Source: an uncultured Anaerolineales bacterium (GTDB lineage Bacteria > Chloroflexota > Anaerolineae > Anaerolineales > UBA11858). From it: 64,000 bases of DNA. Location: assembly GCA_964603385.1 (NCBI GenBank), contig CAZRUS010000004.1:66632-130631 (forward strand), given 5' to 3'. A program made the translations under genes and the position numbers. How positions within the stretch are numbered: position 1 is the stretch's first letter; each line of letters starts with the position of its first letter. Below the pieces are notes generated by a model, which saw only the letters and a program-made list of their open reading frames with translations, did no database searches and was not told the origin of the DNA. Shown here one piece after another: positions 7,824-25,279 of the stretch.

Positions 7824-7853
7824 TTGACATATTCCTCATAGTTCAATTATAAT
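7824..7853 (+). promoter_or_regulatory. Sigma-70-type promoter for the peptide ABC operon
   Basis: Perfect TTGACA (7824-7829), an 18-nt spacer, then perfect TATAAT (7848-7853). It sits inside a conspicuously AT-rich 246-nt intergenic region about 70 nt upstream of the ATPase start. Confidence 0.55.
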
Positions 7854-7923
7854 TCTAAGTTGAGACAGGGTTTTGAAATTGAACCTATTTTGCAGGAAAT
7901 CAAAAATAGGGAAAATTTTTTTG

Positions 7924-9938: not shown

Positions 9939-10068
9939 TTATCCGTCATCTGAAGACATTCTCAGTGAGAAAACAGACCACACAGGAGGTGATTCTCAAG
10001 GAAAAAAACAGCAAAGATGGAAACCACATGTTGAATATCTATCTTAATTTAGAAGGAGAAGAAAAGCT

Positions 10069-11802
10069 ATGAGGAAAAAACTGTTCGTCCTGTTTTCCGT
10101 TATGATGGTCGGCGCGATGCTGCTGTCGGCCTGCGGACCCAGGGCCCAGAAGGCAGAGGTTGCCACCGGTGAAGACCTGGTGACCCTGAACATCAACTGG
10201 CAGACCGAACCTCCCACACTGGATCCCTCGTTGGCCACAGACACCACCTCGGTGGACGTGCTCAACAACCTGTTCGTGGGCCTGACCCAGTTTGATCCGG
10301 TCACCGGCGAGGTTTCCCCCGCCCTGGCCACCGACTGGGAATCCGGCACCGACGATGAGGGCAACCAGACCTGGACCTTCACCATGCGCGATGACGTTCC
10401 CTGGGTGAAATACAACGCCGAGACCGGCGAGGTTGTCCAGGAAGTGGATGAAGAGGGCGAGCCCCACTTTGTCGACGCCAGCGACGTTGTCTACGGCTTC
10501 CGCCGCACGGTGGATCCTGAGACCGGTTCTGACTATTCCTACATCACCTATGTGATCAAGAACGCTCAGCCCATCAACAGCGGTGATGAAGCCTTCACAG
10601 TGGAAGATCTTGGTGTGGAAATGGTGGATGATTTCACCGTTCGCTTCACCCTTGAAAATCCCGCAGGCTACTTCCCCGCCATCGCCGGCTTATGGATTGG
10701 CTACCCGATGCCCCAATGGGCCATCGAGGCAAGCGGCGAGGAATGGACCGAGCCCGAGAATATCGTTACCAACGGCCCCTATGTGCTGGAAGAATGGGTC
10801 CACGGTGCTGAGCTCAACCTGGTGAAGAACCCGCTGTGGGTCAATGCTGACGACGTGCAGATCGAGCGCGTGGAAGGCGTGATGATCACCGAAGCCTCCA
10901 CCGGATTTGCGCTCTATGAGAACAACGAGCTGGACACAGCTGCTGTGCCGCTCCCCGAGATGGATCGTGTGAAAACCGATCCTGAGCTGAGCGAGGAATA
11001 CTTCTCCGCTCCGGTGCCCTGCACCTACTACTACGGCTTCACCAACAACAAACCGCCGTTTGACGACGTGCGTGTCCGCACAGCGTTCACCCAGTCCATC
11101 GACCGCCAGAGCCTGATCGACAACGTGCTCAAGGGCGGCCAGACCCCGGCGACCTCCTTTGCGCCTCCTGGTATCTTTGGCGCTCCGGAACCGGGCGAGG
11201 TTGGCTTGGAATACGATCCTGAGGCTGCGCAGGCTGCCTTCCAGGAATACCTGGATGATAACGGCATGTCCGTGGAAGACTTCAACGCCATGGATGTGGT
11301 GCTGATGCACAACACCAGCGAGGGTCACGCCCGCATCGCCGCTGCCATCCAGCAGATGTGGACCGACACCCTGGGTGTGGAAGTCCGGGTCGAGAACCAG
11401 GAATGGGCTGTCTATCTGAACACCATCGAAAAGGATTCTCCTCTCGAGGACATGCCGCATGTCTGGCGGCTCGGTTGGTGCGCGGACTACCCGGATGAGA
11501 ACAACTGGATTCATGAGGTCTTCAACGCCAACGCTGGTGCCAACCGGCTGCGCCGCGAACCGACTGAATTCGATGAGATCACCGCACAGGCCGCGAAAGT
11601 TCAGGATCCTGCCGAGCGTGAGGAGCTGTACTTAGAGGCCGAGAGAATGCTGGCTGAAGATGAAGTTGCCTATGCCCCGATCTATCACTACTCCACGGAG
11701 AACGTGACCAAGCCGTGGGTGGACCGCAACTTCCCGCCCCTCGGCGGCATCGACATCTACAACTGGACGATTGACATGGCAGCGAAAGAAGCCGCCCAGT
11801 AA
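10069..11802 (+). CDS. ABC transporter substrate-binding lipoprotein, family 5 (peptide type)
   Basis: SD GAAGGAG upstream. Signal/lipobox MMVGAMLLSACG. Family-5 SBP-like length and composition, sitting directly before the permease genes. Confidence 0.85.
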   Translation: MRKKLFVLFSVMMVGAMLLSACGPRAQKAEVATGEDLVTLNINWQTEPPTLDPSLATDTTSVDVLNNLFVGLTQFDPVTGEVSPALATDWESGTDDEGNQTWTFTMRDDVPWVKYNAETGEVVQEVDEEGEPHFVDASDVVYGFRRTVDPETGSDYSYITYVIKNAQPINSGDEAFTVEDLGVEMVDDFTVRFTLENPAGYFPAIAGLWIGYPMPQWAIEASGEEWTEPENIVTNGPYVLEEWVHGAELNLVKNPLWVNADDVQIERVEGVMITEASTGFALYENNELDTAAVPLPEMDRVKTDPELSEEYFSAPVPCTYYYGFTNNKPPFDDVRVRTAFTQSIDRQSLIDNVLKGGQTPATSFAPPGIFGAPEPGEVGLEYDPEAAQAAFQEYLDDNGMSVEDFNAMDVVLMHNTSEGHARIAAAIQQMWTDTLGVEVRVENQEWAVYLNTIEKDSPLEDMPHVWRLGWCADYPDENNWIHEVFNANAGANRLRREPTEFDEITAQAAKVQDPAEREELYLEAERMLAEDEVAYAPIYHYSTENVTKPWVDRNFPPLGGIDIYNWTIDMAAKEAAQ

Positions 11803-11816
11803 CTTTAACTGATCTG

Positions 11817-11855
11817 CATGGAGGCTGGGAGCTGCCTCCCAGCCTCCATGTTTTT
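11817..11855 (+). terminator. Intrinsic terminator/attenuator between the binding-protein gene and the permease genes
   Basis: Perfect 15-bp stem CATGGAGGCTGGGAG / CTCCCAGCCTCCATG with loop CTGC, followed by TTTTT (11851-11855). Confidence 0.75.
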
Positions 11856-11871
11856 AGAAGGACGTACTGTT

Positions 11872-12888
11872 ATGGCTCGATACATCATCCGCAGAATCTT
11901 GCAGTTTATCCCTGTCCTGCTGGGAGTTACCTTATTTACCTTTGTGCTCATGCGCGCTATCCCCGGCGGACCGTTTGATTTCGTCGGCGATCGCAGCCTG
12001 CCGCCCCAGATCCGGGCCAACATGGAAGCCAAGTACCGCTTGGACTGGCCGATGTGGAAGCAGTTTGTCTCCTATGTGGTCGGAGATGATGTGCTGGGAG
12101 AGGAAAGGGGGTCCCGGGGGATCATCCGCGGAGATTTTGGGCCATCACTGCACTTTCGCGGGCAGCAGGTCAGCGATATCATCGCTACCACCCTGCCTAT
12201 ATCTGCACAGCTGGGATTCATGTCACTGCTGCTCTCCGTGATTATCGGAATCCCCGCAGGAATCATCGCAGCGCTGAATCAGAACAGCTGGATCGATTAT
12301 ATATCCACTTTCGGGGCTGTTTTTTTCCTGTCTGTGCCTAACCTGGTCTTATCTCCTATTTTGATCTGGATCTTTGCTTTGAAGCTGGGTTGGTTCCCGG
12401 TTGCTACCTGGGGTGCCAAACCCCCCTACCTGCTGGGCTTTTTGCCCCGCCTGGAACAGCTGAACCGGGAATATTTCGCCCATGCTGTCATGCCGGTCTT
12501 TGCTCTGGGGACCGCCTATGCAGCCCAGATTGCCCGTCTGACCCGGGCCAGTTTGCTGCAGGTCGTTGGGGAGGATTACATCCGCACTGCCCGGGCTAAA
12601 GGGCTGAAAGAGCGGGTGGTCATTGTCATCCACGCCCTGAAAAACAGCCTCATCCCGGTGGTCACCATCCTGGGTCCGCTGTTTGCGGCTCTGCTGACAG
12701 GGACGTTTATTGTTGAAACCATCTTTGGGATCAACGGCATGGGCAAGCACTTTGTGAACAGCATAGGCAACCGGGATTATCAGGTGATCACCGGCGTCAC
12801 CTTAATTTATGCAATCGCGCTGGTTGTCGCCAATCTGGTGGTGGATGTCACCTATGCCTGGCTTGATCCCCGTATTCGCTATGACTAG
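11872..12888 (+). CDS. Peptide ABC transporter permease (DppB/OppB-like)
   Basis: ATG 11872 gives MARYIIRRILQFIPVLLGVTLFTF, the typical DppB N-terminus. EAA-type coupling motif YIRTARAKGLKERVVIVIHALKNSLIPV. The ORF-track start at 11818 lies inside the terminator hairpin. Confidence 0.9.
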   Translation: MARYIIRRILQFIPVLLGVTLFTFVLMRAIPGGPFDFVGDRSLPPQIRANMEAKYRLDWPMWKQFVSYVVGDDVLGEERGSRGIIRGDFGPSLHFRGQQVSDIIATTLPISAQLGFMSLLLSVIIGIPAGIIAALNQNSWIDYISTFGAVFFLSVPNLVLSPILIWIFALKLGWFPVATWGAKPPYLLGFLPRLEQLNREYFAHAVMPVFALGTAYAAQIARLTRASLLQVVGEDYIRTARAKGLKERVVIVIHALKNSLIPVVTILGPLFAALLTGTFIVETIFGINGMGKHFVNSIGNRDYQVITGVTLIYAIALVVANLVVDVTYAWLDPRIRYD

Positions 12889-12923
12889 CGGGGTACTGAA
12901 CAACCGGTTATCTGGAGGAATGT

Positions 12924-13922
12924 ATGGCAGTTGCTGAAATGGCAGGCAGGGGAGCCCAGGAAAAAAGTCTCTGGCAAAAATCTGTTTCCCGCCTGCTGCG
13001 CAATCGAGTGGCAGTTGGCAGCGGGATCTTCATCATCCTGATGGTCCTGGTGGCACTTTTTGCAGGAACGCTGGCCCCCTATTCATTTGCCGAGCAGGAT
13101 TTGACTGCGAACAATGCTATTCCGGAGTGGATGCTGTTTATGCTGCCGGAAGGGGCTTCTGATTACGCCAACATCAACAATGATTATGTGCTTTCTGCGG
13201 ACCACCTGGGACGGGATATTCTCAGCCGGACGATTTTTGGCGCCCGGGTATCCCTGACCATCGCTTTCGCCGGATCCGGCGTCAGCCTGCTGGTGGGAGT
13301 GATCTATGGGATGATCTCCGGATATTCCGGAGGCAGAATCGACAATATCATGATGCGCATTGTAGACTTCCTGTATGCTTTTCCCTTCCTGATCACGGTG
13401 ATCTTGCTGCAGACCTATTTCAAGGCCATTTCCCGGCGGGGCGGTGGAGAGGGTCTGGGCAGTGCCATCATCAATCTCAATAATGACCTCGGGGGTATGC
13501 TCTTCCTGTTCATTGCGATTGGCCTGATCAACTGGATCGGTATGGCCCGCATCGCCCGCGGTCAGGTGCTGTCTTATAAGCAGATGGAGTTTGTCGAGGC
13601 TGCCCGAGCAATCGGAGCGAATGACACCCGGATTATGATCCGCCACCTGCTCCCCAATATCCTGGGACCGCTGATTGTGGCAGAAACGCTGGCGATTCCG
13701 GGGTATATCTTCACGGAATCCTTCCTGAGTTTTATCGGGCTTGGTGTTAACGCGCCCACACCCAGCTGGGGGATTATGATCTCTGAGGGTGTTGAAGCCC
13801 TGCGCATCTACCCTAACCAGGTGCTGGTACCGGCAATTGCCTTATCCCTGACCACATTGGCGTTTAACTTCTTGGGAGATGGGCTTCGGGATGCGTTCGA
13901 TCCCCGTCAGATAGAACGCTAA
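12924..13922 (+). CDS. Peptide ABC transporter permease (DppC/OppC-like)
   Basis: GRDILSRTIFGARVSL motif and coupling motif FVEAARAIGANDTRIMIRHLLPNILGPL, with multiple TM segments. Confidence 0.9.
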   Translation: MAVAEMAGRGAQEKSLWQKSVSRLLRNRVAVGSGIFIILMVLVALFAGTLAPYSFAEQDLTANNAIPEWMLFMLPEGASDYANINNDYVLSADHLGRDILSRTIFGARVSLTIAFAGSGVSLLVGVIYGMISGYSGGRIDNIMMRIVDFLYAFPFLITVILLQTYFKAISRRGGGEGLGSAIINLNNDLGGMLFLFIAIGLINWIGMARIARGQVLSYKQMEFVEAARAIGANDTRIMIRHLLPNILGPLIVAETLAIPGYIFTESFLSFIGLGVNAPTPSWGIMISEGVEALRIYPNQVLVPAIALSLTTLAFNFLGDGLRDAFDPRQIER

Positions 13923-13956
13923 CAGACACGGAAAACCCCCCATCACAGGATTAATT

Positions 13957-13984
13957 CACTGCGGATGCAGAGGCATCCGCAGTG
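13957..13984 (+). terminator. Strong hairpin after the permease gene (probable terminator/attenuator)
   Basis: Perfect 12-bp stem CACTGCGGATGC / GCATCCGCAGTG with loop AGAG, followed by TCTTCTT. It overlaps the ORF-track ATG at 13965, which supports the 14004 start for the next gene. Confidence 0.55.
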
Positions 13985-14003
13985 TCTTCTTGAGGATAAT
14001 AGA

Positions 14004-15767
14004 ATGAAAAGCAATCTTCGCACCACCCTGACAGGAAAGCTGATCATGGGACTGCTGCTGGTATTCCTGGCCGCGGGCTGCAGCGGTTCCCTGGAAAAAT
14101 CCAGGAAGCCATCAGAGGATATCAGCCGGGGACTTCCCCTCTCGATTACCGCCTCCAGTTCCTTAGGGTTTGAGGTCACCCCGGATGGAGAAGCGATCCG
14201 GATCCTGATCAACGAAGAGGAAACTGCAGCTCGATTTCACTACTACCAGCTCAACCGGGCGGCAGAAATTGTCCGGGATGTGATCCTGGATCTTGATTTG
14301 GAAGGGATCGTTCGCTCCCCGGAAATCGTTTCCCACCCCGACGGTTTTCATCTGGTCTGGGCTGCCCGTCCGCAAGCGGGGTCCGGCTGGCAGCTCTGGT
14401 ATGCCAATCTGGACCTGGAGGGGAATCAGCGCATCTCCCCCCGGCGGGTGTCCGGAGATACGGAGTGGGTCAACCGCTATCAGCTGGTGGATGATGGCGC
14501 CGGCGGAGTTTTTGTGATCTGGGAGGACGGCAGCAAAGATGTAATTATGACCGCCCATATGGATGCCGCGGGAGAGCGCTTATCAAGCCCGGGTGTGCTG
14601 ATTGAACAGGGGGAAAATCCTTCCGTCCGGCGGGACCCGGGAGGACATATTCATCTCGCCTGGATGAATGAGGACACCCTGATGTATGCTGCGGTTGATG
14701 CCCTGGATTCCACCCTTCAGGGAACCCCCCTGCTGGATCTGCAGGTGAGCATGGGCAACACCTTGAACGGACCGGTGATTGGGGTGACGGATCAACATGT
14801 GCATTGTTTCTGGTCCATCCTCCGGCAGACCGGTATGGAAGCAGGGACGGCTGTGACAGAATTTATCAGCTTCCCGGTGAATTCTCCGGAAAGTCCCACC
14901 CCCGAGCAGCTCAATGTGTTCAGCAGCCCGGAGGATAGGTCCCGGCCTTATCAGGGTAGATTGAGTCTGGCGGAAATTATTTTGCCTCCGGAGGAGGATT
15001 ACCTGAGCACGGATTTTGTTTTTCATCCTCAAACATCCTCGATCAGCGGTCAATCCCTGGCGGTGGCTGTCTCCGCAAATCAGGAGATCCGATTGGACCG
15101 TTATATTCAGGTGGTGATTGGAATTTTTGAGGGGGGGGAGTATCAGGGATACACAATCGGCACCCGGACGACCCAGTATTCCCGGGACGCAGAGGTGGAA
15201 ATTGATCGTCAGGGCAACCTCCATCTGGTGTGGCGGGATGGAGCCAAAGGGAATCAAGTGTATTACGCCACCACCTCCGAAGCGGGCAAACGCACCTTGA
15301 ATAGAATCACACTTGCCGATCTGCCTACGGTGCTGTTCTCCGGTGGATTGGAAGCGCTGACCGGGGTGCTGCTCTTCCCGTTTGCTTTTCCCTGGATGGC
15401 GGTGGGACTGCTGATCATGATTGTGTATCGATTGATTGAAAACGATGAGGATATCTCCCAGACCCTTTCCAGGGTCTTGCTGGGGGTGTCCCTGGCTGCT
15501 TACCAGATTTCGAAACTGCTTTTTTTGCCGGATATTATGCTTTATGTACCCTTCTCCGCCTGGCTGGATATTCCCATCTGGCTGGCACCCATTCTGCAGG
15601 TCGGTGTGCCCATCCTGGTCTTTGGTTTGGGACTGCTGGCTGCTGAGATACGCCGCAAGCGGATGGATGGGGAACCCTCGTCTCTGGTATATTATCTGCT
15701 GGTCGTGATCGTGGATATGGTGCTGACCCTGGCATTTTACGGGGTAATCTTCCTGGGCGAATACTGA
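14004..15767 (+). CDS. Hypothetical lipoprotein with a beta-propeller-like ectodomain and a C-terminal multi-TM region
   Basis: MKSNLRTTLTGKLIMGLLLVFLAAGCSGS (lipobox). Five spaced strands end in W: GFHLVWAAR, GVFVIWEDG, GHIHLAWMNE, HVHCFWSIL, GNLHLVWRDG. The C-terminal ~140 aa contain 4-5 hydrophobic helices (LFPFAFPWMAVGLLIMIVY ... VLTLAFYGVIFLG). Confidence 0.7.
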   Translation: MKSNLRTTLTGKLIMGLLLVFLAAGCSGSLEKSRKPSEDISRGLPLSITASSSLGFEVTPDGEAIRILINEEETAARFHYYQLNRAAEIVRDVILDLDLEGIVRSPEIVSHPDGFHLVWAARPQAGSGWQLWYANLDLEGNQRISPRRVSGDTEWVNRYQLVDDGAGGVFVIWEDGSKDVIMTAHMDAAGERLSSPGVLIEQGENPSVRRDPGGHIHLAWMNEDTLMYAAVDALDSTLQGTPLLDLQVSMGNTLNGPVIGVTDQHVHCFWSILRQTGMEAGTAVTEFISFPVNSPESPTPEQLNVFSSPEDRSRPYQGRLSLAEIILPPEEDYLSTDFVFHPQTSSISGQSLAVAVSANQEIRLDRYIQVVIGIFEGGEYQGYTIGTRTTQYSRDAEVEIDRQGNLHLVWRDGAKGNQVYYATTSEAGKRTLNRITLADLPTVLFSGGLEALTGVLLFPFAFPWMAVGLLIMIVYRLIENDEDISQTLSRVLLGVSLAAYQISKLLFLPDIMLYVPFSAWLDIPIWLAPILQVGVPILVFGLGLLAAEIRRKRMDGEPSSLVYYLLVVIVDMVLTLAFYGVIFLGEY

Positions 15768-15902
15768 GCCCGCTTTCAAACCGGACCGATGGATTTTTCC
15801 TGCTGATCCTCCACCCCGCAGCAAGAACCAGGATCTGGGGTCAATGGGTATGATTTATCAAAGGGGATGATCTTTAAACAGAAAATGTGAGAGTAGCTGA
15901 CC

Positions 15903-18900
15903 ATGTGGAGTGAATATAAACACACCTTAAGGAAGTTGAGAGGCCAGATCCTTGGCTGGAGCCTGGGAGTGGTCCTTTACAGCCTGCTGATGGTGTTTAT
16001 TTATCCTGATATCGCGGAGATCGATATCTCCAGCCTGCTGGAGAGCTACCCGGAGGAAATGCTGGCTTTCTTTGGAGACAGCATCCGGGCTCTGACCTCC
16101 GCTCAGGGATATCTGGATATCTATTTCTTCAACTATATGACCGTGGTGCTGGGCATCTTCGCCGTCGGAACGGGCGCCAAACTGCTGGTCAAAGAGGAAG
16201 AAGAGGGTCTGATGGACCTGATTCTTGCTTATCCGGTCAGCCGGAGCAGTCTTTTTTGGGGGAGGATATTTGGCTATATCACGGCTCTGGCTGCAGTTCT
16301 TGCTCTGGCCTGGTTGACCTGGTGGCTGCCCTCCCGGATGGTCGGGTTGGAGCTGACGGCTGTCCAGCTGCTGCGGCCTTTTCTCTCTTTGTTTGGCGTG
16401 CTGCTGGTATTTGGTAGTTTTTCCCTGCTGCTCAGTTTGCTGCTTCCCTACAGTCGCGCAGCCGGTATGCTGTCCGGCGGGGCCCTGATCGCCAGTTATC
16501 TGCTGCTGGGTTTGTCCAATATTAATCAGAATTTGGAACCTCTGACGAAGCTGACCCCGCTGCATATATACCAGGGAGGTCAGGCGATCAGCGGCCTTAA
16601 TCTGGACTGGCTGTTGATTTACGGCGAGTTGGTGATCTTGTTTCTGTTCCTCGCCTGGTGGAGATTTCTGGAGCGGGACATTGCTGTGGGTGGAGAGGGT
16701 GGCTGGAAAGAGCTGCTGCCCGGGCAGCGGGAAACTTCCCGGAACCCCTCGCTGTGGAAGCAGATCCGACAGCCGATGTTATTTTTTGGCCAGCGGTTGA
16801 TCTTTGGGCTGCTTGTGCTGGGCTTTATCAGCTATGCCAGTTTCCTGGGGTTGGATATGGCCCGGGGTGAACCTTTCCAGGAGGCGGCCGTGCAGAGCGC
16901 CAGAAAGACGCTGGACTATGCCGGAGATGTCATCCAGGGGGAATTCGGTCAGACCAGCTCCGGCAGCGTCTCCCTGCGGTCGAAACCGGTAGAGGAAGTG
17001 GTCCCTGCTGTTCTGGGACGCAGTTTGGGGCTGCTGGGAGTTTCCCTGGCTTTTGCTGCGGTTGTGGGGGTGCTGCTGGGGATATTCATCGCTGGCAAAC
17101 GATCCGGCATCACGCTGGGCGCGATCATCTTCTCCATTGCCGGGGTTTCTGTGCCCAGCTTTTTTGCGGCGCTGCTGCTCCAGCTGGGGGTGATCCAGCT
17201 GACGAAAATCACCGGCAGAACCCTGCTGCCGGCAGGGGGATTCGGGTGGGATAATCACCTCGTCCTCCCGGCCTTGGTGTTGGCTGCCAGACCGCTGGCT
17301 CAAATCTCCCGGGTGACTTTTGTCACCGTGGAGGATATTCTATCCCAGGATTATATTCGAACGGCCTACAGCAAAGGGCTGAGAGGAATCTATGTCACAG
17401 CGGTTCATCTCCTCCGCAATGCTGCGGTGCCGGTGCTGACCACGATCGGCTTATCCCTGCGTTTTGCCCTCAGCAGCCTGCCGATCGTAGAATTTTACTT
17501 CGGCTGGCAGGGAGCCGGCTACACGCTGCTGCAGGCAATTTCCAACCGGGATGATTATCTCACGGTAATCCTGGTGCTCTGTCTGGGCATATTGTTCATT
17601 GTGGTAAATATGCTGCTGGATGGGGCCTATTTATTAATTGACCCCCGACTGCGCAGTAAGACAGAAAAAGCCAATCTTCGGAACAGGGAAACGATCTGGC
17701 AGAAAGGGAAAAAGTTCGCATCCGCGGTGAAACATTTTTTTACAGAGCGAAAATGGCAATCCTGGTTCCGCAAAAAGCAATCTGCCGGCCCCAGTCCTTT
17801 TCGGGAGATCATTGACAGTCGTGAGGAAGAGTTTGTTTATAATGATCAGCTGGAGTTGACCCGTCACCGGGCCCGGGTGTGGTTGAAAGGGACGCTGGGC
17901 AATCCTGCCCTGATTATCGGTACTGTGATTGTTCTGGCGCTGCTGGGGGTGATGCTCCTGAGTCCGGTGATCTCTCCGCACAGTCCTTATTCCACGCAGA
18001 GCATGACCATTGAAGAGGGGGAGTTCAGCGTTCCGCCATTTCCCCCCGGAGAACGCTTTCCCTGGGGAACGGATCCCCTGGGCCGGGACTTAATGAGCTT
18101 GATCTTCGCCGGGGCTCAGCAGACCCTCACCCTGGCGGTCTCCGTGGTGGCTGTACGACTGCTGGTAGGTTTTCTGTTGGGAGCAGCCGGAGGATGGAAT
18201 TCCGGGGGAGGGCTGGATCGTTTTGTCCTGGGCCTGTCCGAGGTGATCTCCGCCTTTCCGGCGCTGCTGCTGGTGATGGTGCTGATCCTGGGGATAGGCA
18301 TCCGGCAGGGGATGCAGCCCTTCATTATTGCCCTCAGTTTTATCGGCTGGGGCGAAATCATGCAGTTTGTGCGCAGCAAGGTGATGGAGATTAAAACCAA
18401 GCTGTTCATAGAAGGCGCGCAGGCGGCGGGGGCAAATTCTTTGCGCATTATTCGCAAGCATGTGCTGCCCAATCTGGTCCCTGAGATGGTCTCCATTCTC
18501 TCCCTGGAAATGGGAGCGGTCCTGATGCTGCTGGGGGAACTGGGATTTATTGGCATATTTATCGGTGGGGGCGCTTTTGCAGAACTTGAAATCTGGGGGC
18601 CGCCTTACCATTATTCTGATGTTCCCGAATGGGGGGCACTGTTGAGCAACATCCGTCTTTATGCTCGATCCTATCCCTGGACAGCCCTCTATCCCGCCGG
18701 GGCCTTTTTTGTGGCCATCCTGGGATTTAACTTCTTTGGCGAGGGCATCCGTCGGTTGATTGACCACGTGGGCGTGGCTGCCACCCGCTTATTTGTCAAT
18801 AAGTACACGCTCGCTGCCCTGGCAGTCCTGGGGGGCTTGTTTTTCTGGTTCCGCGGCAGCACCGGTTCCCTTGCTGTGTTTCAACAGCAGGCCAGAACCT

Positions 18901-20303
18901 TCAAGGGTGGGAATGCCCGGGCCTATGTGGAAATCCTTTCCAACCCGGCATGGGAGGGTCGTTCACTGGGATCGGCAGGACTGGATCAGGCGGCGGAATA
19001 CATCGCTGGACAGTTTGAGTCCCTGGGGCTGCAGCCTGCCGGGGAGTCCCTGACCTATTTTCAAACCCGCCCCCGATCCTATCAGCAGCTGGATGCCATC
19101 CCGAAGCTCCGCTTCCATGACACCACCTACCAGCCGGTGTATTATGAGGATTTTTCCGCCTACGTCAGCCAATACCGCAACCTGGGAGAAGCGACCGCCC
19201 CGGTCACCTACCTCGGCATTGGTGAGCTGATGGAAATTGGACAGATGTTCCGGAATTATCCCGCCCTGGAAGAGCTGGATTTCAGCGGGGAAATTGTTAT
19301 GGTCTCATCCGACCAAGAGGCGGACATTATCCATGATATGCCCAAATCGGGGGTGCTGGTGGTCACTGAGGATCACAACCTGCTCAGTCAGACCGCTACC
19401 TATTCTTCCCGAACCCCGTATTACCAGCCTTTTGGGCTGGATGAAACCCGGGGCATGGATACGCCGGTCCTGCGCATCAGTGAAAGGCTGGCGGACCACC
19501 TGCTGGCGGATACGGGAACTGAGCTCGATCAGCTGCGGCTTGACCAGGAGAAGCTGGAACAGGACGAGTTCCTGATCATCCCCACCGGGAAAACGGTCAC
19601 CATGGAGGTGGAAGGAACCATTCATGATGATGAGGAAGTTGTCAATGTCATCGGCCATTTACCGGGCCTCAACGCCCAGCTGGATGAGCAGTTGATTGTC
19701 ATCATGGCTCAATATGACAGCCCTCCGGTGATCCAGGGGCAGACCCCAGCGGATGCCGCCAACAACAATGCCTCCGGTGTGGCTGTGCTGCTGGAGTTGA
19801 TCCGCACCCTCCAGGAATCCGGATATCAGCCGAACAAGACCTTCCTGTTTGTGGCTTATGCCGGGGAAGGCATGGAAGGGGGAGAGTGGGCGGTTCCGGA
19901 GGTATCCAAGCTGCTGCAGACAAAATACGGCTTCTCCACCGCCTTTGATGTGGAAGCGGTGATCGAGATCCGCGGGGTGGGAGCGGGCAGCGGTGATGGA
20001 TTGATTACCTCCACGGAGGGCAGTTTGAGGCTGGTAGAATTGTTTGAATCCAGCGCAAACCGTCTGGGGGTGGGTCTGGAACGGGCTGAGGATCGCCTGG
20101 ATTTGAGCGTGATCTTCGAGGAAGGCAGCCGTTATGAGTCGGCAGACGAGGCGCCTTATCTGGAGATTTTCTGGGATGGATGGTGGGAAGTCGGCGGGAC
20201 TCCCTGGGATAATCTGGAGGAGATCTCAGCAGACAACCTGGAGCTGTCCGGAGAGGTGCTCAGTCTGGCAGCCATGGTGCTTGGCTACGAGGTCAACTAC
20301 TGA
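15903..20303 (+). CDS. 1466-aa fusion protein: ABC-2-type permease, DppB-like permease, DppC-like permease, an extra TM helix, and a PA/M28-peptidase-like ectodomain
   Basis: One uninterrupted frame. Residues ~1-270 are 6 TM and ABC-2-like. The next module carries the coupling motif YIRTAYSKGLRGIYVTAVHLLRNAAVPV and ends LLIDPRLR. After a basic linker comes a DppC-like module with WGTDPLGRDLMS and FIEGAQAAGANSLRIIRKHVLPNLVPE. TM helix YTLAALAVLGGLFFWF follows. The ectodomain has a PA-like DFSGEIVMVSSDQ and M28-like NNNASGVAVLLELIRTL. Confidence 0.8.
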   Translation: MWSEYKHTLRKLRGQILGWSLGVVLYSLLMVFIYPDIAEIDISSLLESYPEEMLAFFGDSIRALTSAQGYLDIYFFNYMTVVLGIFAVGTGAKLLVKEEEEGLMDLILAYPVSRSSLFWGRIFGYITALAAVLALAWLTWWLPSRMVGLELTAVQLLRPFLSLFGVLLVFGSFSLLLSLLLPYSRAAGMLSGGALIASYLLLGLSNINQNLEPLTKLTPLHIYQGGQAISGLNLDWLLIYGELVILFLFLAWWRFLERDIAVGGEGGWKELLPGQRETSRNPSLWKQIRQPMLFFGQRLIFGLLVLGFISYASFLGLDMARGEPFQEAAVQSARKTLDYAGDVIQGEFGQTSSGSVSLRSKPVEEVVPAVLGRSLGLLGVSLAFAAVVGVLLGIFIAGKRSGITLGAIIFSIAGVSVPSFFAALLLQLGVIQLTKITGRTLLPAGGFGWDNHLVLPALVLAARPLAQISRVTFVTVEDILSQDYIRTAYSKGLRGIYVTAVHLLRNAAVPVLTTIGLSLRFALSSLPIVEFYFGWQGAGYTLLQAISNRDDYLTVILVLCLGILFIVVNMLLDGAYLLIDPRLRSKTEKANLRNRETIWQKGKKFASAVKHFFTERKWQSWFRKKQSAGPSPFREIIDSREEEFVYNDQLELTRHRARVWLKGTLGNPALIIGTVIVLALLGVMLLSPVISPHSPYSTQSMTIEEGEFSVPPFPPGERFPWGTDPLGRDLMSLIFAGAQQTLTLAVSVVAVRLLVGFLLGAAGGWNSGGGLDRFVLGLSEVISAFPALLLVMVLILGIGIRQGMQPFIIALSFIGWGEIMQFVRSKVMEIKTKLFIEGAQAAGANSLRIIRKHVLPNLVPEMVSILSLEMGAVLMLLGELGFIGIFIGGGAFAELEIWGPPYHYSDVPEWGALLSNIRLYARSYPWTALYPAGAFFVAILGFNFFGEGIRRLIDHVGVAATRLFVNKYTLAALAVLGGLFFWFRGSTGSLAVFQQQARTFKGGNARAYVEILSNPAWEGRSLGSAGLDQAAEYIAGQFESLGLQPAGESLTYFQTRPRSYQQLDAIPKLRFHDTTYQPVYYEDFSAYVSQYRNLGEATAPVTYLGIGELMEIGQMFRNYPALEELDFSGEIVMVSSDQEADIIHDMPKSGVLVVTEDHNLLSQTATYSSRTPYYQPFGLDETRGMDTPVLRISERLADHLLADTGTELDQLRLDQEKLEQDEFLIIPTGKTVTMEVEGTIHDDEEVVNVIGHLPGLNAQLDEQLIVIMAQYDSPPVIQGQTPADAANNNASGVAVLLELIRTLQESGYQPNKTFLFVAYAGEGMEGGEWAVPEVSKLLQTKYGFSTAFDVEAVIEIRGVGAGSGDGLITSTEGSLRLVELFESSANRLGVGLERAEDRLDLSVIFEEGSRYESADEAPYLEIFWDGWWEVGGTPWDNLEEISADNLELSGEVLSLAAMVLGYEVNY

Positions 20304-20344: not shown

Positions 20345-21301
20345 TCAGGGTTGGGAATAGATATCCCCCCCGGGCACCTGCACAGAATCCAGAAGATAAT
20401 CCAGGATGGTCCCTTCATCGCGCTCCTGCAGCCGGGCACCAGGGGCGAGGATCAGCCGGTGGGCCAGGATCGGCGTGGCGATCCTTTTGATATCATCGGG
20501 GGTGACATAGTCTCGGCCCTGCAGGGCAGCAATGGCCTGTCCCGCACGGAATAACCCCAGGCTTCCCCTGGGGCTTGCACCCAGATAGATATCCTCATGG
20601 GAGCGCGTGCGCTGCACCAGATTGATGATATAGCGCTTGATGGGAAAAGCGATGTGCACAGAACGGATAGCCTGCTGCACATCCAGCACATCCTGGACAG
20701 TGACCACAGCGCCCAGATCCCTAATGGGATGGCGGTACTGCTGCTGATCCAGGATGTCCATTTCTTCCTTTTCCTTTGGATAGCCCAATTTGATGCGCAT
20801 TAAAAAGCGATCCAGCTGAGCTTCCGGAAGGCGGAAGGTGCCCTCATGTTCAATAGGATTCTGGGTTGCCAGCACCATGAACAGGTCAGGAAGAGGGTGA
20901 GTGATGCCATCCACAGTAACCTGCTGTTCCTGCATGGCTTCCAGCAGCGCGCTCTGGGTTTTCGGTGTCGCCCGGTTGATCTCGTCGGCGAGGACAATTT
21001 CTGACATGACCGGACCGGGTCGAAATTCAAACTTTTTGGTTGCCTGATTGTAAATTGAGACGCCGGTCACATCACTGGGCAGCATATCTGGTGTGAACTG
21101 AATGCGGCCAAATTTTCCGCCCAGGGAGATGGCCAAACTGCGGGCCAGCATGGTCTTTCCAACTCCCGGGATATCCTCGATCAGCAGGTGTCCCTCACAG
21201 AGCAGACAGGCAACGGCCAGCTGAATGACGTCCCGCTTGCCCACGATCACTTTCTCAATGTTTGTGATTAATTGATCGGCAAATTGCTTAACGTTTTCCA
21301 T
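20345..21301 (-). CDS. MoxR-family AAA+ ATPase
   Basis: Walker A DIPGVGKT, Walker B VLADEINRATPKTQSALLEAM, and LATQNPIEHEGTFRLPEAQLDRF, typical of MoxR/RavA-like ATPases. Confidence 0.9.
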   Translation of the reverse strand: MENVKQFADQLITNIEKVIVGKRDVIQLAVACLLCEGHLLIEDIPGVGKTMLARSLAISLGGKFGRIQFTPDMLPSDVTGVSIYNQATKKFEFRPGPVMSEIVLADEINRATPKTQSALLEAMQEQQVTVDGITHPLPDLFMVLATQNPIEHEGTFRLPEAQLDRFLMRIKLGYPKEKEEMDILDQQQYRHPIRDLGAVVTVQDVLDVQQAIRSVHIAFPIKRYIINLVQRTRSHEDIYLGASPRGSLGLFRAGQAIAALQGRDYVTPDDIKRIATPILAHRLILAPGARLQERDEGTILDYLLDSVQVPGGDIYSQP

Positions 21302-21310
21302 GACTTTCCT

Positions 21311-23743
21311 CTAGTAGGGTTGTTTGATTTGATCCGGGGAGATCGTGGGTGCTGTATCCCAAAAAAACTTGCGCAGCAGCCAGAAGCGGTGTGCTCTGAC
21401 CAGCAGCCACAGATACCAGAACCGGAGCCGCAGCCGCTGAAATGTAATCAGGAAGTCTTTGGGAATGATCTCTCTGCCCTGATCAGGACTGAAGAGCACC
21501 CGGTAATACGCCTTGGTGATCTCTGAAAACGCTTGCTGCGCTTCCATCAACCACTCTTCCCGCCAACTTCCCTTTCCATATCGCTTCATGTGCCGGCTGA
21601 AACGCTGAAAAAATTCCTCCGGCGTATCCCCGGGGCGGGAGGGAAATCCCATCCAGCGGGCGTACCGGTAGATGCGACGGTACAACCTGGGAAGCAATCT
21701 CTGTGCTGGAAGCATCCTCAGCACAGCCAGATCGGCAGCCAGCCCAAGGGCTGCCAGAAGGATCACCCCACCGATGATGCCGGCGGCGGTCCAAAACCAG
21801 GAAAATTCACTCCAAAATCTCCGACAGTTGAGTGGGTCAAAATCGGCTTGGTAATCATCGCTGAACTTCGGTGCGGCATCCGCAGGACGGTCAATCGGCG
21901 GTCTGCCACCGGTGGGCTCAAAGGCAATCCAGCCGTTTTCAGGAAAGTAAATCTCCACCCAGGCATGCGCCAGGTCAGCGGTGATCCGGTAAGTGTTGGA
22001 ATCGGCGAGGTACTGGCCGCCCAGGTACCCGGTTACCAGGCGGGCAGGAAGACCGGCCGACCTGGAAAGCACCACCATGGTTGTGGCGTAGTAATCGCAG
22101 TACCCCTGTTTGGCGGTGAAGAGGAAATACTCAGCTAAATCCTGATCAATGGGCGGCTGAGGCAGATCCAGGTTGTAGGGGAACTGCCGCAAATAAGACT
22201 CGATAGCTACAGCCCGATCGTACGGCGTGGGCTCCGTGGCGGTCAAGTCCCTGGCCAGGGCATGGACCCGCTCCGGAACGGAGTCCGGAAGGGTAAGATA
22301 GCGCTCCCGTATCCACTGCGGATAATCCTGGTCAGCGCGCTGGAGTTCTTTTTCACCGGCCCTGGGGTAGAGCGAATCGGCCAGGTAGCTGGTCTCCTGG
22401 ATGACGGCTCCAAAGATATCGAAGGCATTCAGGTCGCTGTCCTGCACCCGCCAGGCTACCTGAAACTGCTCATCTGCGCTGAGCGGGATGCCGGCGGTGT
22501 ACATCACCCCTCCCAGGTCCTGGCGGTACTCCACCCGCTGGCGGATGACCTGATAATTTTCCGGCCACTCGCTGAGGGTTGTTTCTCCGGATTGAACCGT
22601 TTCTTGTTCGTTTTCTCTGGAGACCCAGCCGCGGCCGATGTAGAGGTCATAGGTCAGCCCCCGCCAGTAATATTTCTCGCCCTGCGCCCCTGCTGGCTGC
22701 TGATTGAGCTCCCCCTGGGGCTGAATCTGGACCGTCATTACCACCTGATCGCTGAGTTCGGGTCCGGAACCAATCAGGTGGCGGTTGGGCAGGCCGGGAG
22801 CTTGAAAGTTTTCGAAGATATTGACGGTTTTTTGATCCTCCTCCCGGTCAAGCCCCAGGGAGCGCAGCAGATCATCCTCCTTCTCTGATTCCTGCCCCAG
22901 CCGCTGGATGGTTTCTGCGATCCGCTGGATGGAGAAGGTGGGCGTGATCATGGAAAACAATGTGATGCCCAGGGTGACCACCAGGGCTGCGCCGGTGATT
23001 TTTTCCCGGATAATTCCGGCGTATTCCAGCTCCTGGTCCTGCCAGGTTCTCTCCCTGGCGTCGTGCTGCACCAGTATGGAAAGGGCGGTGGTGAATGCCA
23101 GAATGGGGACCAGATGATAGGCGGTTTTTCCGGAATAAATCAGGTCCAGGGAGGAAAGTCCCAGCAAGGGCAGCAGCGCCAGCAGGGGCTGCTGGCGGCG
23201 AAATATCAGCCACATCGCCCAGACTGCAATTACCCAGATCAAAAACCCCCAGAATAAGGCAGTCACAGTAGGATCATAATAAGGCTTTCCCTGCAGGCTG
23301 TTCCCTGCCCAGGTCAGATAGCGGGTGCCCAGAACCTGGATGCGCTCTCCCAGTTCGGCGATGCCCAGCTGGATCGGTCGGAGCTCCGGGGCGGCATCCT
23401 GCTGAAAGATCCACCGCCAGGTCGCTGTGCTGACCCGAAAAAGGGCTGAAAATAACTCCAGGAGAAGTCTTTCTAAACGGGCAACACGGATGACCAGGAT
23501 ACCCAATCCGAGAAGGAAGGCAGCCAGGGATCCTTTCCAGATGGAAATTGGGGCGATAGCCAGGACCCAACCCACCACCAAACCGGCCATCGCCATCAGC
23601 ATCAGCAGGCTGTTTTCTAAGCCCTGAATGGAGTTTCTGAGGATGCCTGCCAGGTTCACAAAGATCACCAGGATCAGCACCCAATTCCGCAGGGTCGGTC
23701 TGGAGAGATATCGCTGCTGAAACTCCCGGAGCGCGGTGATCAT
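21311..23743 (-). CDS. Transglutaminase-like domain membrane protein
   Basis: Multi-TM N-terminal half. Transglutaminase core GYCDYYATTMVVLSRSAGLPARLVTGY (Cys), LAHAWVEIYF (His), GWIAFEPTGG (acidic position is Glu here). One further C-terminal TM. ATGA overlap with the DUF58 gene. Confidence 0.85.
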   Translation of the reverse strand: MITALREFQQRYLSRPTLRNWVLILVIFVNLAGILRNSIQGLENSLLMLMAMAGLVVGWVLAIAPISIWKGSLAAFLLGLGILVIRVARLERLLLELFSALFRVSTATWRWIFQQDAAPELRPIQLGIAELGERIQVLGTRYLTWAGNSLQGKPYYDPTVTALFWGFLIWVIAVWAMWLIFRRQQPLLALLPLLGLSSLDLIYSGKTAYHLVPILAFTTALSILVQHDARERTWQDQELEYAGIIREKITGAALVVTLGITLFSMITPTFSIQRIAETIQRLGQESEKEDDLLRSLGLDREEDQKTVNIFENFQAPGLPNRHLIGSGPELSDQVVMTVQIQPQGELNQQPAGAQGEKYYWRGLTYDLYIGRGWVSRENEQETVQSGETTLSEWPENYQVIRQRVEYRQDLGGVMYTAGIPLSADEQFQVAWRVQDSDLNAFDIFGAVIQETSYLADSLYPRAGEKELQRADQDYPQWIRERYLTLPDSVPERVHALARDLTATEPTPYDRAVAIESYLRQFPYNLDLPQPPIDQDLAEYFLFTAKQGYCDYYATTMVVLSRSAGLPARLVTGYLGGQYLADSNTYRITADLAHAWVEIYFPENGWIAFEPTGGRPPIDRPADAAPKFSDDYQADFDPLNCRRFWSEFSWFWTAAGIIGGVILLAALGLAADLAVLRMLPAQRLLPRLYRRIYRYARWMGFPSRPGDTPEEFFQRFSRHMKRYGKGSWREEWLMEAQQAFSEITKAYYRVLFSPDQGREIIPKDFLITFQRLRLRFWYLWLLVRAHRFWLLRKFFWDTAPTISPDQIKQPY

Positions 23744-25041
23744 CCCAGCGTCCTCCAGGAAACAGTCTGTTGATTGAGTCCCCGGGAATGCTGTCTGAGG
23801 CGTTCACCAGGCTGCATTTTCTGTCCATCCGCTATTCTCCCGGACAGATCCTGCAGCAGATCATTAATCAGGTAATATTTGATGCCCATGTCCAGGATAT
23901 TTTCTTCCATCAGTTCCGGGGTCTGGGATCCACCAAAGGCAGCCGGGTTTAACAGCAGGACTGTGGGCACAATTCCTTTTCTCAGCAGGTATCCCAATTT
24001 ATCCAGCCAGGCGGGATGGGCATTGGCCGTGATGATAATCAGGCTGGTGCGCTGCGCTAAAGAGGATCGCAGGTGATCGAGCATCTCAGACAGGGAAGGT
24101 CCTTTAGGACGCACAACGGCCAGGGACCGCAGCACCGTCCAGAGGTGGGACTCCCCCTCATCAGGGGGATGCCAGATCAACTCTCCTCCATGGGTGACCA
24201 GGCCGACCTGTTTGCCGTTCTGCAGCCCCTGGTGAACCAGAGATGCTGCCAGGATGACGCCGATTTCTTCCGAGGAGTCCTCTCCCTCCCCGACCTGCAC
24301 AGCGGGATCCATATCCAGCAGCACCCACCAGCTGCTGGAGGGCGAGTAATCAAACATACGCACGTAGGGTTCCCCTGTCCGGGCTGTGGTGGGCCAATGG
24401 ATCCAGCGCAGGCTGTCGCCGGGGGTATACTCCCGGACTCCACCGGCAATAATTGTCCGTTCCAGCCCCCGGTAGGTGGACTGCCCTTCGCCGGTTCGAC
24501 CACCCGGGGCAATTTCAATCCGGGGAAGGGGAACTACGGGCGGGACTACCATCATCGTCACCGTCTGAGGGTAATCAATCCGCACTCTGAAGATCCCCAG
24601 CGGATCCCCCGTTTCCACACTGGTTGGGCCCAATGTAAAAATACCCCGGCGGTGGCAGATCCCCTTAGTAAACCAGTGGGTGTACCACTGGCTGCGGACA
24701 CTGGCAATCCTGTCCACAGCATAGCCGGGCATTTGGGAGTGGTCAATAATCCGGACCCATAGGGCTGGAAATCGGCTGTCATTTTCCAGTGAAAGCCGCT
24801 CCTGGATGTGATCCCCTACCTGCATCCAACCAAAACGCATTTCCCGCTCCATGTGCAGGAGGTCTTTCAATCTCCATGCCCACAGAAAAGCCAGGGCGGT
24901 CATACCGCCAAAGCCAGAAGCAAGGATTACCCAGCCTTTAAAGGGAAAGAAAACTTGTAGAACAATCAGCAGCGCTGCCAATCCGGGAATCAGCCAGGAA
25001 TTAATCTTAAAAGTTCGTTTTGGGGATACCTCTAAATTCAT
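23740..25041 (-). CDS. DUF58 (vWA-like) protein, MoxR partner
   Basis: ATG 25041 gives MNLEVSPKRTFKINSWLIPGLAALLIVLQVFF with two N-terminal TM helices. DUF58 signature REYTPGDSLRWIHWPTTARTGEPYVRMF. The 80 codons upstream in the ORF-track frame have no recognisable features. Confidence 0.85.
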   Translation of the reverse strand: MNLEVSPKRTFKINSWLIPGLAALLIVLQVFFPFKGWVILASGFGGMTALAFLWAWRLKDLLHMEREMRFGWMQVGDHIQERLSLENDSRFPALWVRIIDHSQMPGYAVDRIASVRSQWYTHWFTKGICHRRGIFTLGPTSVETGDPLGIFRVRIDYPQTVTMMVVPPVVPLPRIEIAPGGRTGEGQSTYRGLERTIIAGGVREYTPGDSLRWIHWPTTARTGEPYVRMFDYSPSSSWWVLLDMDPAVQVGEGEDSSEEIGVILAASLVHQGLQNGKQVGLVTHGGELIWHPPDEGESHLWTVLRSLAVVRPKGPSLSEMLDHLRSSLAQRTSLIIITANAHPAWLDKLGYLLRKGIVPTVLLLNPAAFGGSQTPELMEENILDMGIKYYLINDLLQDLSGRIADGQKMQPGERLRQHSRGLNQQTVSWRTLG

Positions 25042-25279
25042 ATGCTGATTATAACAAAGCTTTATTTTCCCCTGACTTAACGGCAAATGTGAAAAGCTCC
25101 GGGATTTTTGATGAGTTCTGATGGGCCCGGGACCGCATCCAGCCGTGACAGAGAGCGGGTTCTGACAGGCGTGGATGAACAACAGCTGTTGGGAGATCAG
25201 CTCGTTCCCTAATAAATTTGCAAGGTACTTTCCAACTTCAACCCCGTGTTTCCGGTGCTCCCCGTGATACAATTTTGCC

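Follow-up and report, generated by a model that had tools for sequence, protein, structure and literature searches.

A single-chain Dpp-type permease with a peptidase-derived, metal-ligand-free ectodomain and a late ABC-2 addition in an Anaerolineales bacterium

We analysed a stretch of 64,000 nucleotides (nt) from an uncultured Anaerolineales bacterium (contig CAZRUS010000004.1), hereafter the window, which carries on its plus strand a gene that joins several membrane modules and a large extracytoplasmic domain in one polypeptide. A preliminary description of this gene, made from the sequence alone, had claimed that a single uninterrupted frame fuses an ABC-2-type permease, a DppB-like and a DppC-like permease, an extra transmembrane (TM) helix and an ectodomain related to PA-containing M28 peptidases with substituted metal ligands. 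The open reading frame was confirmed, and every motif quoted in that description was found at the expected residues. The permease modules of the fusion are called DppB' and DppC' in the following, and its features are:

15903-20303, plus strand: whole fusion gene (ABC-2, DppB', DppC', TM19, PA/M28-like ectodomain), an uninterrupted ATG-to-stop open reading frame of 1466 aa
15903-16667, plus strand: ABC-2 module (NosY-like, PF12679), aa 1-255, six helices (Pfam ABC2_membrane_2, six hydrophobic segments)
16668-16772, plus strand: cytoplasmic linker 1, aa 256-290, opening with the former C-terminal tail of a stand-alone ABC-2 protein
16773-17627, plus strand: DppB'-like permease, aa 291-575 (BPD_transp_1 at 389-584; NCBIfam NikB/DppB/Opp2B models)
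17352-17435, plus strand: EAA coupling motif of DppB', YIRTAYSKGLRGIYVTAVHLLRNAAVPV, aa 484-511
17628-17897, plus strand: basic cytoplasmic linker 2, aa 576-665 (lysine and arginine count, weak conservation)
17898-18782, plus strand: DppC'-like permease, aa 666-960 (OppC_N and BPD_transp_1; NikC/DppC/Opp2C models)
aa 721-732: DppC' motif quoted in the preliminary description, WGTDPLGRDLMS
18405-18485, plus strand: EAA motif of DppC', FIEGAQAAGANSLRIIRKHVLPNLVPE, aa 835-861
18789-18854, plus strand: nineteenth TM helix, aa 963-984 (hydrophobic segment 963-981 after the cytoplasmic end of DppC'; a helix in the AlphaFold2 model)
aa 968-983: quoted motif of the extra TM helix, YTLAALAVLGGLFFWF
18855-20300, plus strand: predicted PA/M28-fold ectodomain without metal ligands, aa 985-1466 (AlphaFold2 and Foldseek)
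19095-19562, plus strand: putative PA insert within the ectodomain, approximately aa 1065-1220 (fold match)
aa 1126-1138: quoted PA-insert motif, DFSGEIVMVSSDQ

Pfam searches support the ABC-2, BPD_transp_1 and M28 assignments proposed earlier. ABC2_membrane_2 matched residues 9-222 (E 2.8e-16, 60.1 bits against a gathering score of 27.2), BPD_transp_1 matched twice, as a B-type and a C-type permease (E 1e-37, 130.1 bits against a cut-off of 26.4), with a weak OppC_N match preceding the second stretch, and Peptidase_M28 matched residues 1248-1368 (E 7.6e-11, 42.5 bits against a cut-off of 21.3), spanning profile positions 1-104 of 193 only. NCBIfam models of the DppB/NikB type fell on residues ~336-586 and those of the DppC/NikC type on ~667-955, all with scores far under the equivalog cut-offs, which marks DppB' and DppC' as divergent paralogues. 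According to a hydropathy scan and charge counts, residues 1-255, 291-575 and 666-960 hold six helices each, the ABC-2 module has both its N- and its C-terminal end in the cytoplasm, and a single further helix at 963-984 is followed by a hydrophilic C-terminal tail of 482 aa. The stretch between helices at 572-668 comprises 97 aa with 21 lysine and arginine residues, in agreement with the basic linker described earlier. These counts yield a coherent 6+6+6+1 topology that places the tail outside the cell, as had been proposed. The columns of both EAA loops are nearly invariant among 57 relatives.

A chain of this kind could have been produced by an assembly or sequencing error that joined separate genes, or could represent a decaying gene, and breaks in two relatives, a frameshift in L001 and fragments of the ABC-2 module in L008, might be taken as support. 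The wider comparison speaks against such an artefact. A query against 5.8 billion proteins brought up one protein of 97% identity and another 14 full-length orthologues between 1440 and 1471 aa long (56-66% identity); these 15 proteins originate from ENA, JGI, NCBI and Logan assemblies, and the frame is thus kept in 15 independent assemblies. With one representative genome per GTDB species, 253 stretches encode relatives of the ectodomain, and the best 80 of these 253 belong nearly all to the Anaerolineae (Anaerolineales, Anaerolineaceae, Promineifilaceae, Caldilineaceae, Ardenticatena, Thermoflexia). In these best loci, 73 of 75 DppB'-DppC'-ectodomain triplets form one uninterrupted frame; a split pair of DppB' and DppC'-M28 genes was seen at one locus (L091). 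All modules of the fusion are under purifying selection: the ratio of nonsynonymous to synonymous substitution rates (dN/dS; Nei-Gojobori, per segment), calculated for the single pair of the window and its 97% identical orthologue L090, was 0.12 for the whole gene, 0.15 for ABC-2, 0.03 for DppB', 0.08 for DppC', 0.09 for the ectodomain and ~0.3 for the linkers (0.30 for linker 2). Identity among the orthologues was 9-40% in linker 1 (89% to P0001) and, among the non-identical ones, 32-52% in linker 2. The L001 relative, which had been called as two genes, was considered as a naturally split form and rejected, since the gene is interrupted by a 1-nt frameshift within the ABC-2 module, ahead of the sixth helix. 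This position off any domain boundary, and the fact that the same long-read assembly also splits the gene of the neighbouring protein X (see below), point to a sequencing error or a recent lesion. An artefact is effectively refuted as an explanation, and the fusion can be regarded as genuine.

The ectodomain was modelled with AlphaFold2 (residues 971-1466, 56 homologues; pLDDT 88.6, pTM 0.88). Its top Foldseek matches among solved structures were PaAP, the Aneurinibacillus aminopeptidase AM-1, TfR1, BSAP and GCPII (E 1e-23 to 1e-19), and the probability of 1.00 assigned to M28 enzymes establishes the M28 alpha/beta fold for the model. The comparison with the transferrin receptor made in the preliminary description is apt at the level of the fold, since TfR1 is among the best structural matches. 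For the PA-like insert, the support comes from the fold: the model shows a beta-rich insert at ~1065-1220, and the alignment to PA-containing M28 proteins spans roughly the whole model. The Pfam PA model itself gave no match on the fusion protein at E <= 0.01; it matched the relatives P0364 and P0288, at the equivalent place by offset estimate only. In the numbering of the Aeromonas aminopeptidase, the positions of the M28 metal ligands and of the general base are:

19710-19712, plus strand: codon Q1270, site of zinc ligand His97; Q in 102 of 121 family members
19764-19766, plus strand: codon N1288, site of bridging ligand Asp117; D in 106 of 121, N in 12 including the window
19866-19871, plus strand: codons E1322-G1323, general-base Glu151 kept and ligand Glu152 lost; E in 118 of 121, G in 120 of 121
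19971-19973, plus strand: codon R1357, site of ligand Asp179; R in 115 of 121, where canonical relatives read NLDxxG
20196-20198, plus strand: codon G1432, site of ligand His256; variable (R 51, G 37, H 12), where canonical relatives read IHxPxDT

Alignment to the Aeromonas aminopeptidase sequence placed His97 on Q1270, Asp117 on N1288, Glu151 on E1322 and Glu152 on G1323. The second half of the ectodomain gave no sequence alignment to solved M28 enzymes with phmmer or a 12-sequence profile, which aligned only the part from the first ligand to the EE motif. Asp179 and His256 were therefore placed through reference relatives that carry the canonical motifs HYDH, GANDNASG, AEE, NLDxxG and IHxPxDT, and alignment to these HDEEDH relatives assigned them to R1357 and G1432. 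The ligand string, general base included, reads QNEGRG in the window as against QDEGRR in the family consensus and HDEEDH in canonical enzymes; the bridging aspartate is kept in the consensus and lost in the clade of the window. All five zinc ligands are replaced, as suspected earlier. The earlier account of the EE site needs correction, as the ligand glutamate is indeed lost and the general-base glutamate is retained. At three of the former ligand positions the replacement residues (Q, G and R) are themselves conserved across the 121 family members. With all five ligands replaced, the protein should be classed among the non-peptidase homologues, not among the M28 enzymes, and from sequence and model we consider the ectodomain a PA/M28 fold devoid of metal ligands and, by prediction, non-catalytic.

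The relatives of this domain form a graded series. A profile built from 12 sequences and searched against 1.84 billion cluster representatives recovered 249 clusters at E <= 1e-30. The majority architecture is DppB'-DppC'-M28 with ~1170-1240 aa, to which some relatives add an N-terminal extension of ~100 residues, part of them with TPR matches. A Dpp-type ATPase domain fronts DppB' in P0341 (Pfam ABC_tran) and in P0279 and P0290 (phmmer calls), P0263 has the form DppB'-DppC'-M28-M28, and relatives of ~780-890 aa consist of DppC'-M28 without DppB'. Stand-alone PA-M28 proteins and proteins of 1600-2180 aa with two M28 modules complete the set. The stand-alone enzymes have the full HDEEDH pattern, as do the first module of the giant proteins and the DppC'-M28 protein P0376, and a second DppC'-M28 protein, P0372, reads HDEEEH; among the DppB'-DppC'-M28 proteins examined, none has the full ligand set. 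Many relatives are partly degenerate, and the degenerate forms fall mainly into two classes, QDEGRR and YDGESH/HDGESH. P0376 directly follows a separate 306-aa BPD_transp_1 gene at L091 and so represents a split, ligand-intact state. In the simplest history, an active aminopeptidase first became attached to a peptide permease; the two permease genes then fused and catalysis was lost.

Several further observations concern these relatives. The YDGESH/HDGESH class was seen in P0263, P0299, P0302, P0304, P0313, P0281 and P0333; it presumably retains one zinc site with its three ligands (Asp117, Glu152, His256) and has lost the other site and the general base, and its domains may be mono-zinc binding modules. 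Besides P0288 and P0280, about 40 giant proteins of 1600-2180 aa carry two PA-M28 modules, the first usually HDEEDH and the second often HDQEDN; P0288 and P0280, the only two giants scanned with Pfam, gave weak Peptidase_MA_2 matches, and P0288 also a DUF418 match. These two-module proteins are a possible source lineage of the permease-tethered domain. Back-to-back pairs of DppB'-DppC'-M28-like genes occur at eight loci of Anaerolineae genomes (L003 at 10001-17155, L030, L035, L045, L048, L053, L082, L086), with ectodomains 37-47% identical to that of the window.

The N-terminal ABC-2 module has a different history. Among the relatives' loci compared, it is confined to the window and to L001, L010, L012, L013, L014 and L016. 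A remnant in L008 consists of four pieces in different frames with internal deletions, and the module is absent from L009 and L011 (ectodomains ~61% identical; in L009, X and the fusion are just 114 nt apart), whose remaining modules are as similar to the window as those of ABC-2-bearing orthologues. It is also the least conserved structured module among the orthologues, with 37-60% identity versus 73-79% for the permeases. It is most closely related to over 200 stand-alone permeases of ~280 aa (50-62% identity), which directly follow their own ABC_tran gene at the loci examined, and one metagenome-assembled genome (MAG; GCA_964532455) holds both a stand-alone cassette (L004) and a fused form (L010) that are 67% identical. 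The stand-alone protein ends with ...WWRFLNRDLRVAGEGGWKLKEIFSFRK*, and the fusion continues through ...WWRFLERDIAVGGEGGWKELLPGQ...; the alignment of the stand-alone protein almost to its last residues indicates that a copy of the whole gene was joined in frame. No ABC-2-type ATPase gene was found in the window, where the gene upstream of the fusion encodes protein X, and the module thus lacks the adjacent cognate ATPase of its stand-alone relatives. The TM2-TM3 cytoplasmic loop (DEEkGiLDLvmAhPvSR), which we take from type V ABC folds to be the coupling-helix site, is among the best-conserved segments of the stand-alone forms (0.79) and the most relaxed one in the fused set (0.52). Most lineages are probably losing the coupling to an ATPase, and judging from these comparisons the module is a recent, clade-restricted and dispensable copy of a stand-alone, ATPase-paired permease.

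Could the ABC-2 module nevertheless be functionally central, by pairing with its own second copy or with a stand-alone paralogue and an ATPase, and so couple an exporter to the Dpp-type importer? Its dN/dS of 0.15, the loop motif of ATPase-paired forms that is kept in the window, the MAG with both fused and stand-alone copies and the inclusion of a complete stand-alone protein nearly to its last residues would all be compatible with such a role, which we nonetheless regard as very unlikely: close relatives have lost the module or carry it in decay with their other modules intact, the putative ATPase-contact loop is precisely the part most relaxed across fused orthologues, most of the family (~1200 aa) never carried the module, and the window has no ABC-2 ATPase. 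Two observations on its descent are recorded here. The synonymous divergence (dS) of the ABC-2 segment (15903-16667) from L090 is 0.25, roughly double the value in the remainder of the gene (0.11-0.13), which in this one pair would fit recombination or gene conversion with a paralogue. In a neighbour-joining tree of fused and stand-alone ABC-2 sequences, midpoint-rooted and unsupported, the fused copies form a long-branched, non-monophyletic grade, and the tree was not used to decide between one fusion event, several events and gene conversion.

The fusion is the last gene of a row that otherwise resembles a classical peptide-uptake operon, all on the same strand:

5683-7677, plus strand: SBP_bac_5 solute-binding protein 1 (SBP1; Pfam E 8.6e-41)
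7873-8934, plus strand: DppD-like ATPase (ABC_tran and oligo_HPY)
8931-9938, plus strand: DppF-like ATPase (ABC_tran and oligo_HPY)
10069-11802, plus strand: second SBP_bac_5 protein (SBP2; Pfam)
11818-12888, plus strand: canonical DppB (Pfam)
12924-13922, plus strand: canonical DppC (Pfam)
13965-15767, plus strand: protein X, 600 aa, modelled with a lipoprotein-type N-terminal anchor, an extracytoplasmic beta-propeller and a C-terminal four-helix membrane bundle

The order SBP-DppD-DppF-SBP-DppB-DppC-X-fusion is shared with L001, L002, L009, L017, L018, L020 and others, which range from close to moderately distant relatives, and DppD and DppF are the sole Dpp-type ATPases of the operon. Among the 33 GTDB loci that extend at least 6 kb upstream, the canonical DppB/DppC/SBP set is present in 20, X in 18 and DppF in 17, and SBP1-like genes lie near the fusion in 7 of the 55 GTDB loci with room for them. 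X is on the opposite strand in some other genomes, and in some the fusion stands alone. DppB' is 36% identical to the adjacent DppB over the C-terminal 133 aa and DppC' 29% identical to the adjacent DppC, and this low identity marks them as old paralogues of their neighbours. A promoter scan found one perfect sigma-70-like site 5' of dppD (7824-7853), and the search for promoters and terminators between X and the fusion gave nothing convincing. Considering the two BPD_transp_1 domains with conserved EAA loops, the low dN/dS of DppB' and DppC', the operon and the ATPase-fused relatives together, DppB'-DppC' is predicted to be a competent transporter.

Protein X has 36 homologues, all unnamed, and gave no Pfam match and nothing usable in NCBIfam. 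Its model (pLDDT 82.8) retrieved only generic six- or seven-bladed beta-propellers with Foldseek (glycosidases, lectins, WD40-like). Translation of X probably starts at the second Met (nt 14004), because a 91% identical homologue (P0391) has 587 aa. Between the dppC stop (13922) and this probable start we observed a hairpin with a perfect 12-bp stem, CACTGCGGATGC-AGAG-GCATCCGCAGTG (13957-13984, plus strand), which might act in transcript processing or attenuation within the operon. Convergent with the fusion lies a cluster of genes for a MoxR ATPase, a TgpA-like transglutaminase and a DUF58 protein (20345-25281, minus strand). In 12 of the 55 loci with room the fusion has a TgpA-like gene nearby, and one also stands beside the split, ligand-intact pair of L091 (6427-8682); this association may be a functional link or mere inherited gene order. 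Further downstream, a 551-aa open reading frame (33056-34711, plus strand) combines a partial match to a Bmp/PnrA-like binding protein at aa 13-108 (profile 6-102 of 301) with a BPD_transp_2 permease domain at aa 241-520 and may be another fusion of a receptor fragment and a permease, or its first part may be just an anchor.

These neighbours bear on the idea that the fusion is not an importer at all, and instead forms the membrane scaffold of a cell-surface complex with X and possibly the MoxR, DUF58 and TgpA-like proteins, in which the Dpp-like domains, driven by ATP, would be a mechanotransmitter or sensor as in FtsEX or LolCDE. The conservation of X beside the fusion, the recurrent TgpA-like gene and the variety of modules gathered at the N-terminus (ABC-2, TPR, ATPase domain) would suit a scaffold. 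DppB' and DppC' are, however, the most strongly conserved parts of the protein and lie within a classical peptide-uptake operon, and the transglutaminase association is partial and could reflect inherited gene order. To our knowledge, mechanotransmission occurs in type VII ABC systems and not in type I importer folds, and we consider a scaffold function unlikely.

Building on the observed architecture, fold, ligand loss, selection, distribution and evolutionary series, we favour, with a probability of little more than one half (roughly 0.55), the explanation that the fusion is a second, single-chain Dpp-type translocator that shares DppD and DppF, carries a non-catalytic peptidase-derived ectodomain and has acquired the ABC-2 module late. 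The DppB'-DppC' chain would supply both membrane subunits of a second type I ABC importer (Dpp/Opp type) that works alongside the canonical DppB/DppC pair and most probably draws its energy from the upstream DppD and DppF, and the two SBP_bac_5 receptors would serve the two translocators. Such sharing is suggested by the gene content of the operon, with one pair of ATPases for two binding proteins and two membrane pairs. The nineteenth helix would set the PA-domain M28 aminopeptidase fold on the outer face of the membrane. The probable ancestors of this domain are active peptidases attached to this permease lineage, which presumably trimmed peptides at the mouth of the transporter; both zinc sites would later have been lost, with selection preserving the domain as an accessory without catalysis. 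Its most likely task is to capture peptides, or to dock or position a partner such as a binding protein or the beta-propeller protein X. The ABC-2 module would be a late, in-frame and full-length copy, constrained in its lineage and unneeded by the core machine. The preliminary reading is supported in part: the fusion of these modules with a dead PA/M28 fold stands, the tethered ligand-binding role that it proposed for the ectodomain is one possible function, and the ABC-2 module, which it had left unexplained, can be traced to a late copy of a stand-alone permease.

Several points weigh against this explanation. Every dN/dS value derives from one sequence pair, the link of the fusion to DppD and DppF is deduced from the gene content, and the binding or docking role of the ectodomain is drawn from its conservation and from analogy. 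In the distant L052, L054, L062, L071 and L087, the fusion stands alone, with no ATPase or binding-protein gene within ~8-10 kb. The window copy of the ABC-2 module retains the TM2-TM3 loop motif KEEEEGLMDLILAYPVSR, strongly conserved in the ATPase-paired stand-alone forms, so that ATPase coupling may persist, and its dN/dS suggests that the module does something in the lineage of the window.

A more radical possibility is that the dead M28 domain is a tethered receptor without the Venus-flytrap fold, which would grip the free N-terminus of a peptide, feed it to DppB'-DppC' and replace a soluble binding protein. The remodelled site is conserved (Q, E, G and R in and beside the former ligand positions), the ectodomain is under purifying selection (dN/dS 0.09), and some distant relatives have no binding-protein gene within ~10 kb. 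Moreover, importers with tethered receptor domains are known, such as OpuA (PMC7673798) and EgtUV (PMC9732360), as are dead peptidase domains that handle substrate on ABC transporters, such as the C39-like domain of HlyB (PMC8277102). The operon of the window, however, encodes two ordinary SBP_bac_5 receptors for two translocators, and the dead domain need not be a receptor. We also know of no type I importer that uses a non-SBP fold as receptor, and we regard this possibility as rather unlikely. A still bolder combination, in which the metal-free ectodomain is a new kind of receptor or gate for a type I importer and the ABC-2 module recruits a second ATPase system, seems improbable to us; if true, one polypeptide would bridge two mechanistically different ABC machines.

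Anaerolineae are abundant peptide- and detritus-degraders of sediments, digesters and wastewater plants. The fusion is a predicted transporter class that annotation has missed, despite ectodomain relatives in at least 253 species-level genomes; databases label these proteins plainly as 'ABC transporter permease subunit'. A full-text search of the literature found no description of permease-M28 or ABC-2-Dpp fusions: the parts are known, and their combination and the enzyme-to-non-enzyme series on an importer are undescribed in the literature searched. This series offers a case of transition from enzyme to non-enzyme on a transporter, with ligand-intact tethered peptidases, partly degenerate forms and two dead classes. 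Since these stages can be directly compared, they provide a testable model of a past coupling between uptake and extracellular peptide processing. The ABC-2 addition in turn tests the modularity of ABC membrane domains, as the presence of an importer fold and an exporter fold in one chain is unusual.

Compared with known systems, the fusion is closest in its core to the Dpp/Opp/Nik importers (DppBCDF with a cluster-C SBP_bac_5 protein), with which it shares two BPD_transp_1 domains, EAA loops and an operon with oligo_HPY ATPases and SBP_bac_5 receptors. It differs from them in that a basic linker of ~90 aa connects its membrane subunits into a single chain, in their identity of only 29-36% to the adjacent DppB and DppC, and in the added helix, the 480-aa ectodomain and, here, the N-terminal ABC-2 module. 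The latter resembles stand-alone NosY-like ABC-2 proteins (PF12679, COG1277) in its 50-62% identity over ~270 aa, its six helices and its conserved loop and tail motifs; unlike these, it has neither a stop codon nor an adjacent ABC-2 ATPase gene and is joined to importer-type domains.

The ectodomain shares the two-domain fold (Foldseek E 1e-21 to 1e-23) and recognisable motifs around the ligands with PA-M28 aminopeptidases such as Pseudomonas PaAP (8ac7/8ac9), Aneurinibacillus AM-1 (2ek8) and Bacillus BSAP/YwaD (6hc6). Those enzymes are secreted, whereas the domain described here lacks the five zinc ligands and is tethered to a permease in the membrane. In this it resembles TfR1, whose M28/PA fold likewise has no metal ligands, sits on one membrane helix and serves binding and not catalysis. 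Nicastrin and nicalin are likewise non-catalytic M28-fold ectodomains used for binding, and nicalin gave a weak sequence match to the ectodomain (E 0.045). These three proteins are, however, eukaryotic and have no covalently attached transporter, and the 482-aa ectodomain is without the C-terminal helical dimerisation domain of TfR and GCPII.

As a tethered extracytoplasmic domain on a type I importer of a bacterium that lacks a confined periplasm, the arrangement recalls OpuA, GlnPQ and EgtUV, in which an extracytoplasmic receptor domain is tethered to a membrane subunit of the importer (OpuA, PMC7673798; EgtUV, PMC9732360). There the tethered domain is a two-lobed binding protein, whereas here it has the PA/M28 peptidase fold, and separate binding proteins are encoded as well. 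The evolutionary course finds a parallel in the peptidase-containing ABC transporters (PCATs), which carry an active C39 peptidase domain, and in HlyB, whose C39-like domain is degenerate and has been kept for a different purpose (PMC8277102). In those type IV exporters the cysteine-peptidase domain is N-terminal and cytoplasmic, unlike the C-terminal, extracytoplasmic metallopeptidase fold on a type I importer scaffold described here; in both cases, one transporter lineage spans active peptidases and retained dead forms, from HDEEDH to QDEGRR and QNEGRG in the present family.

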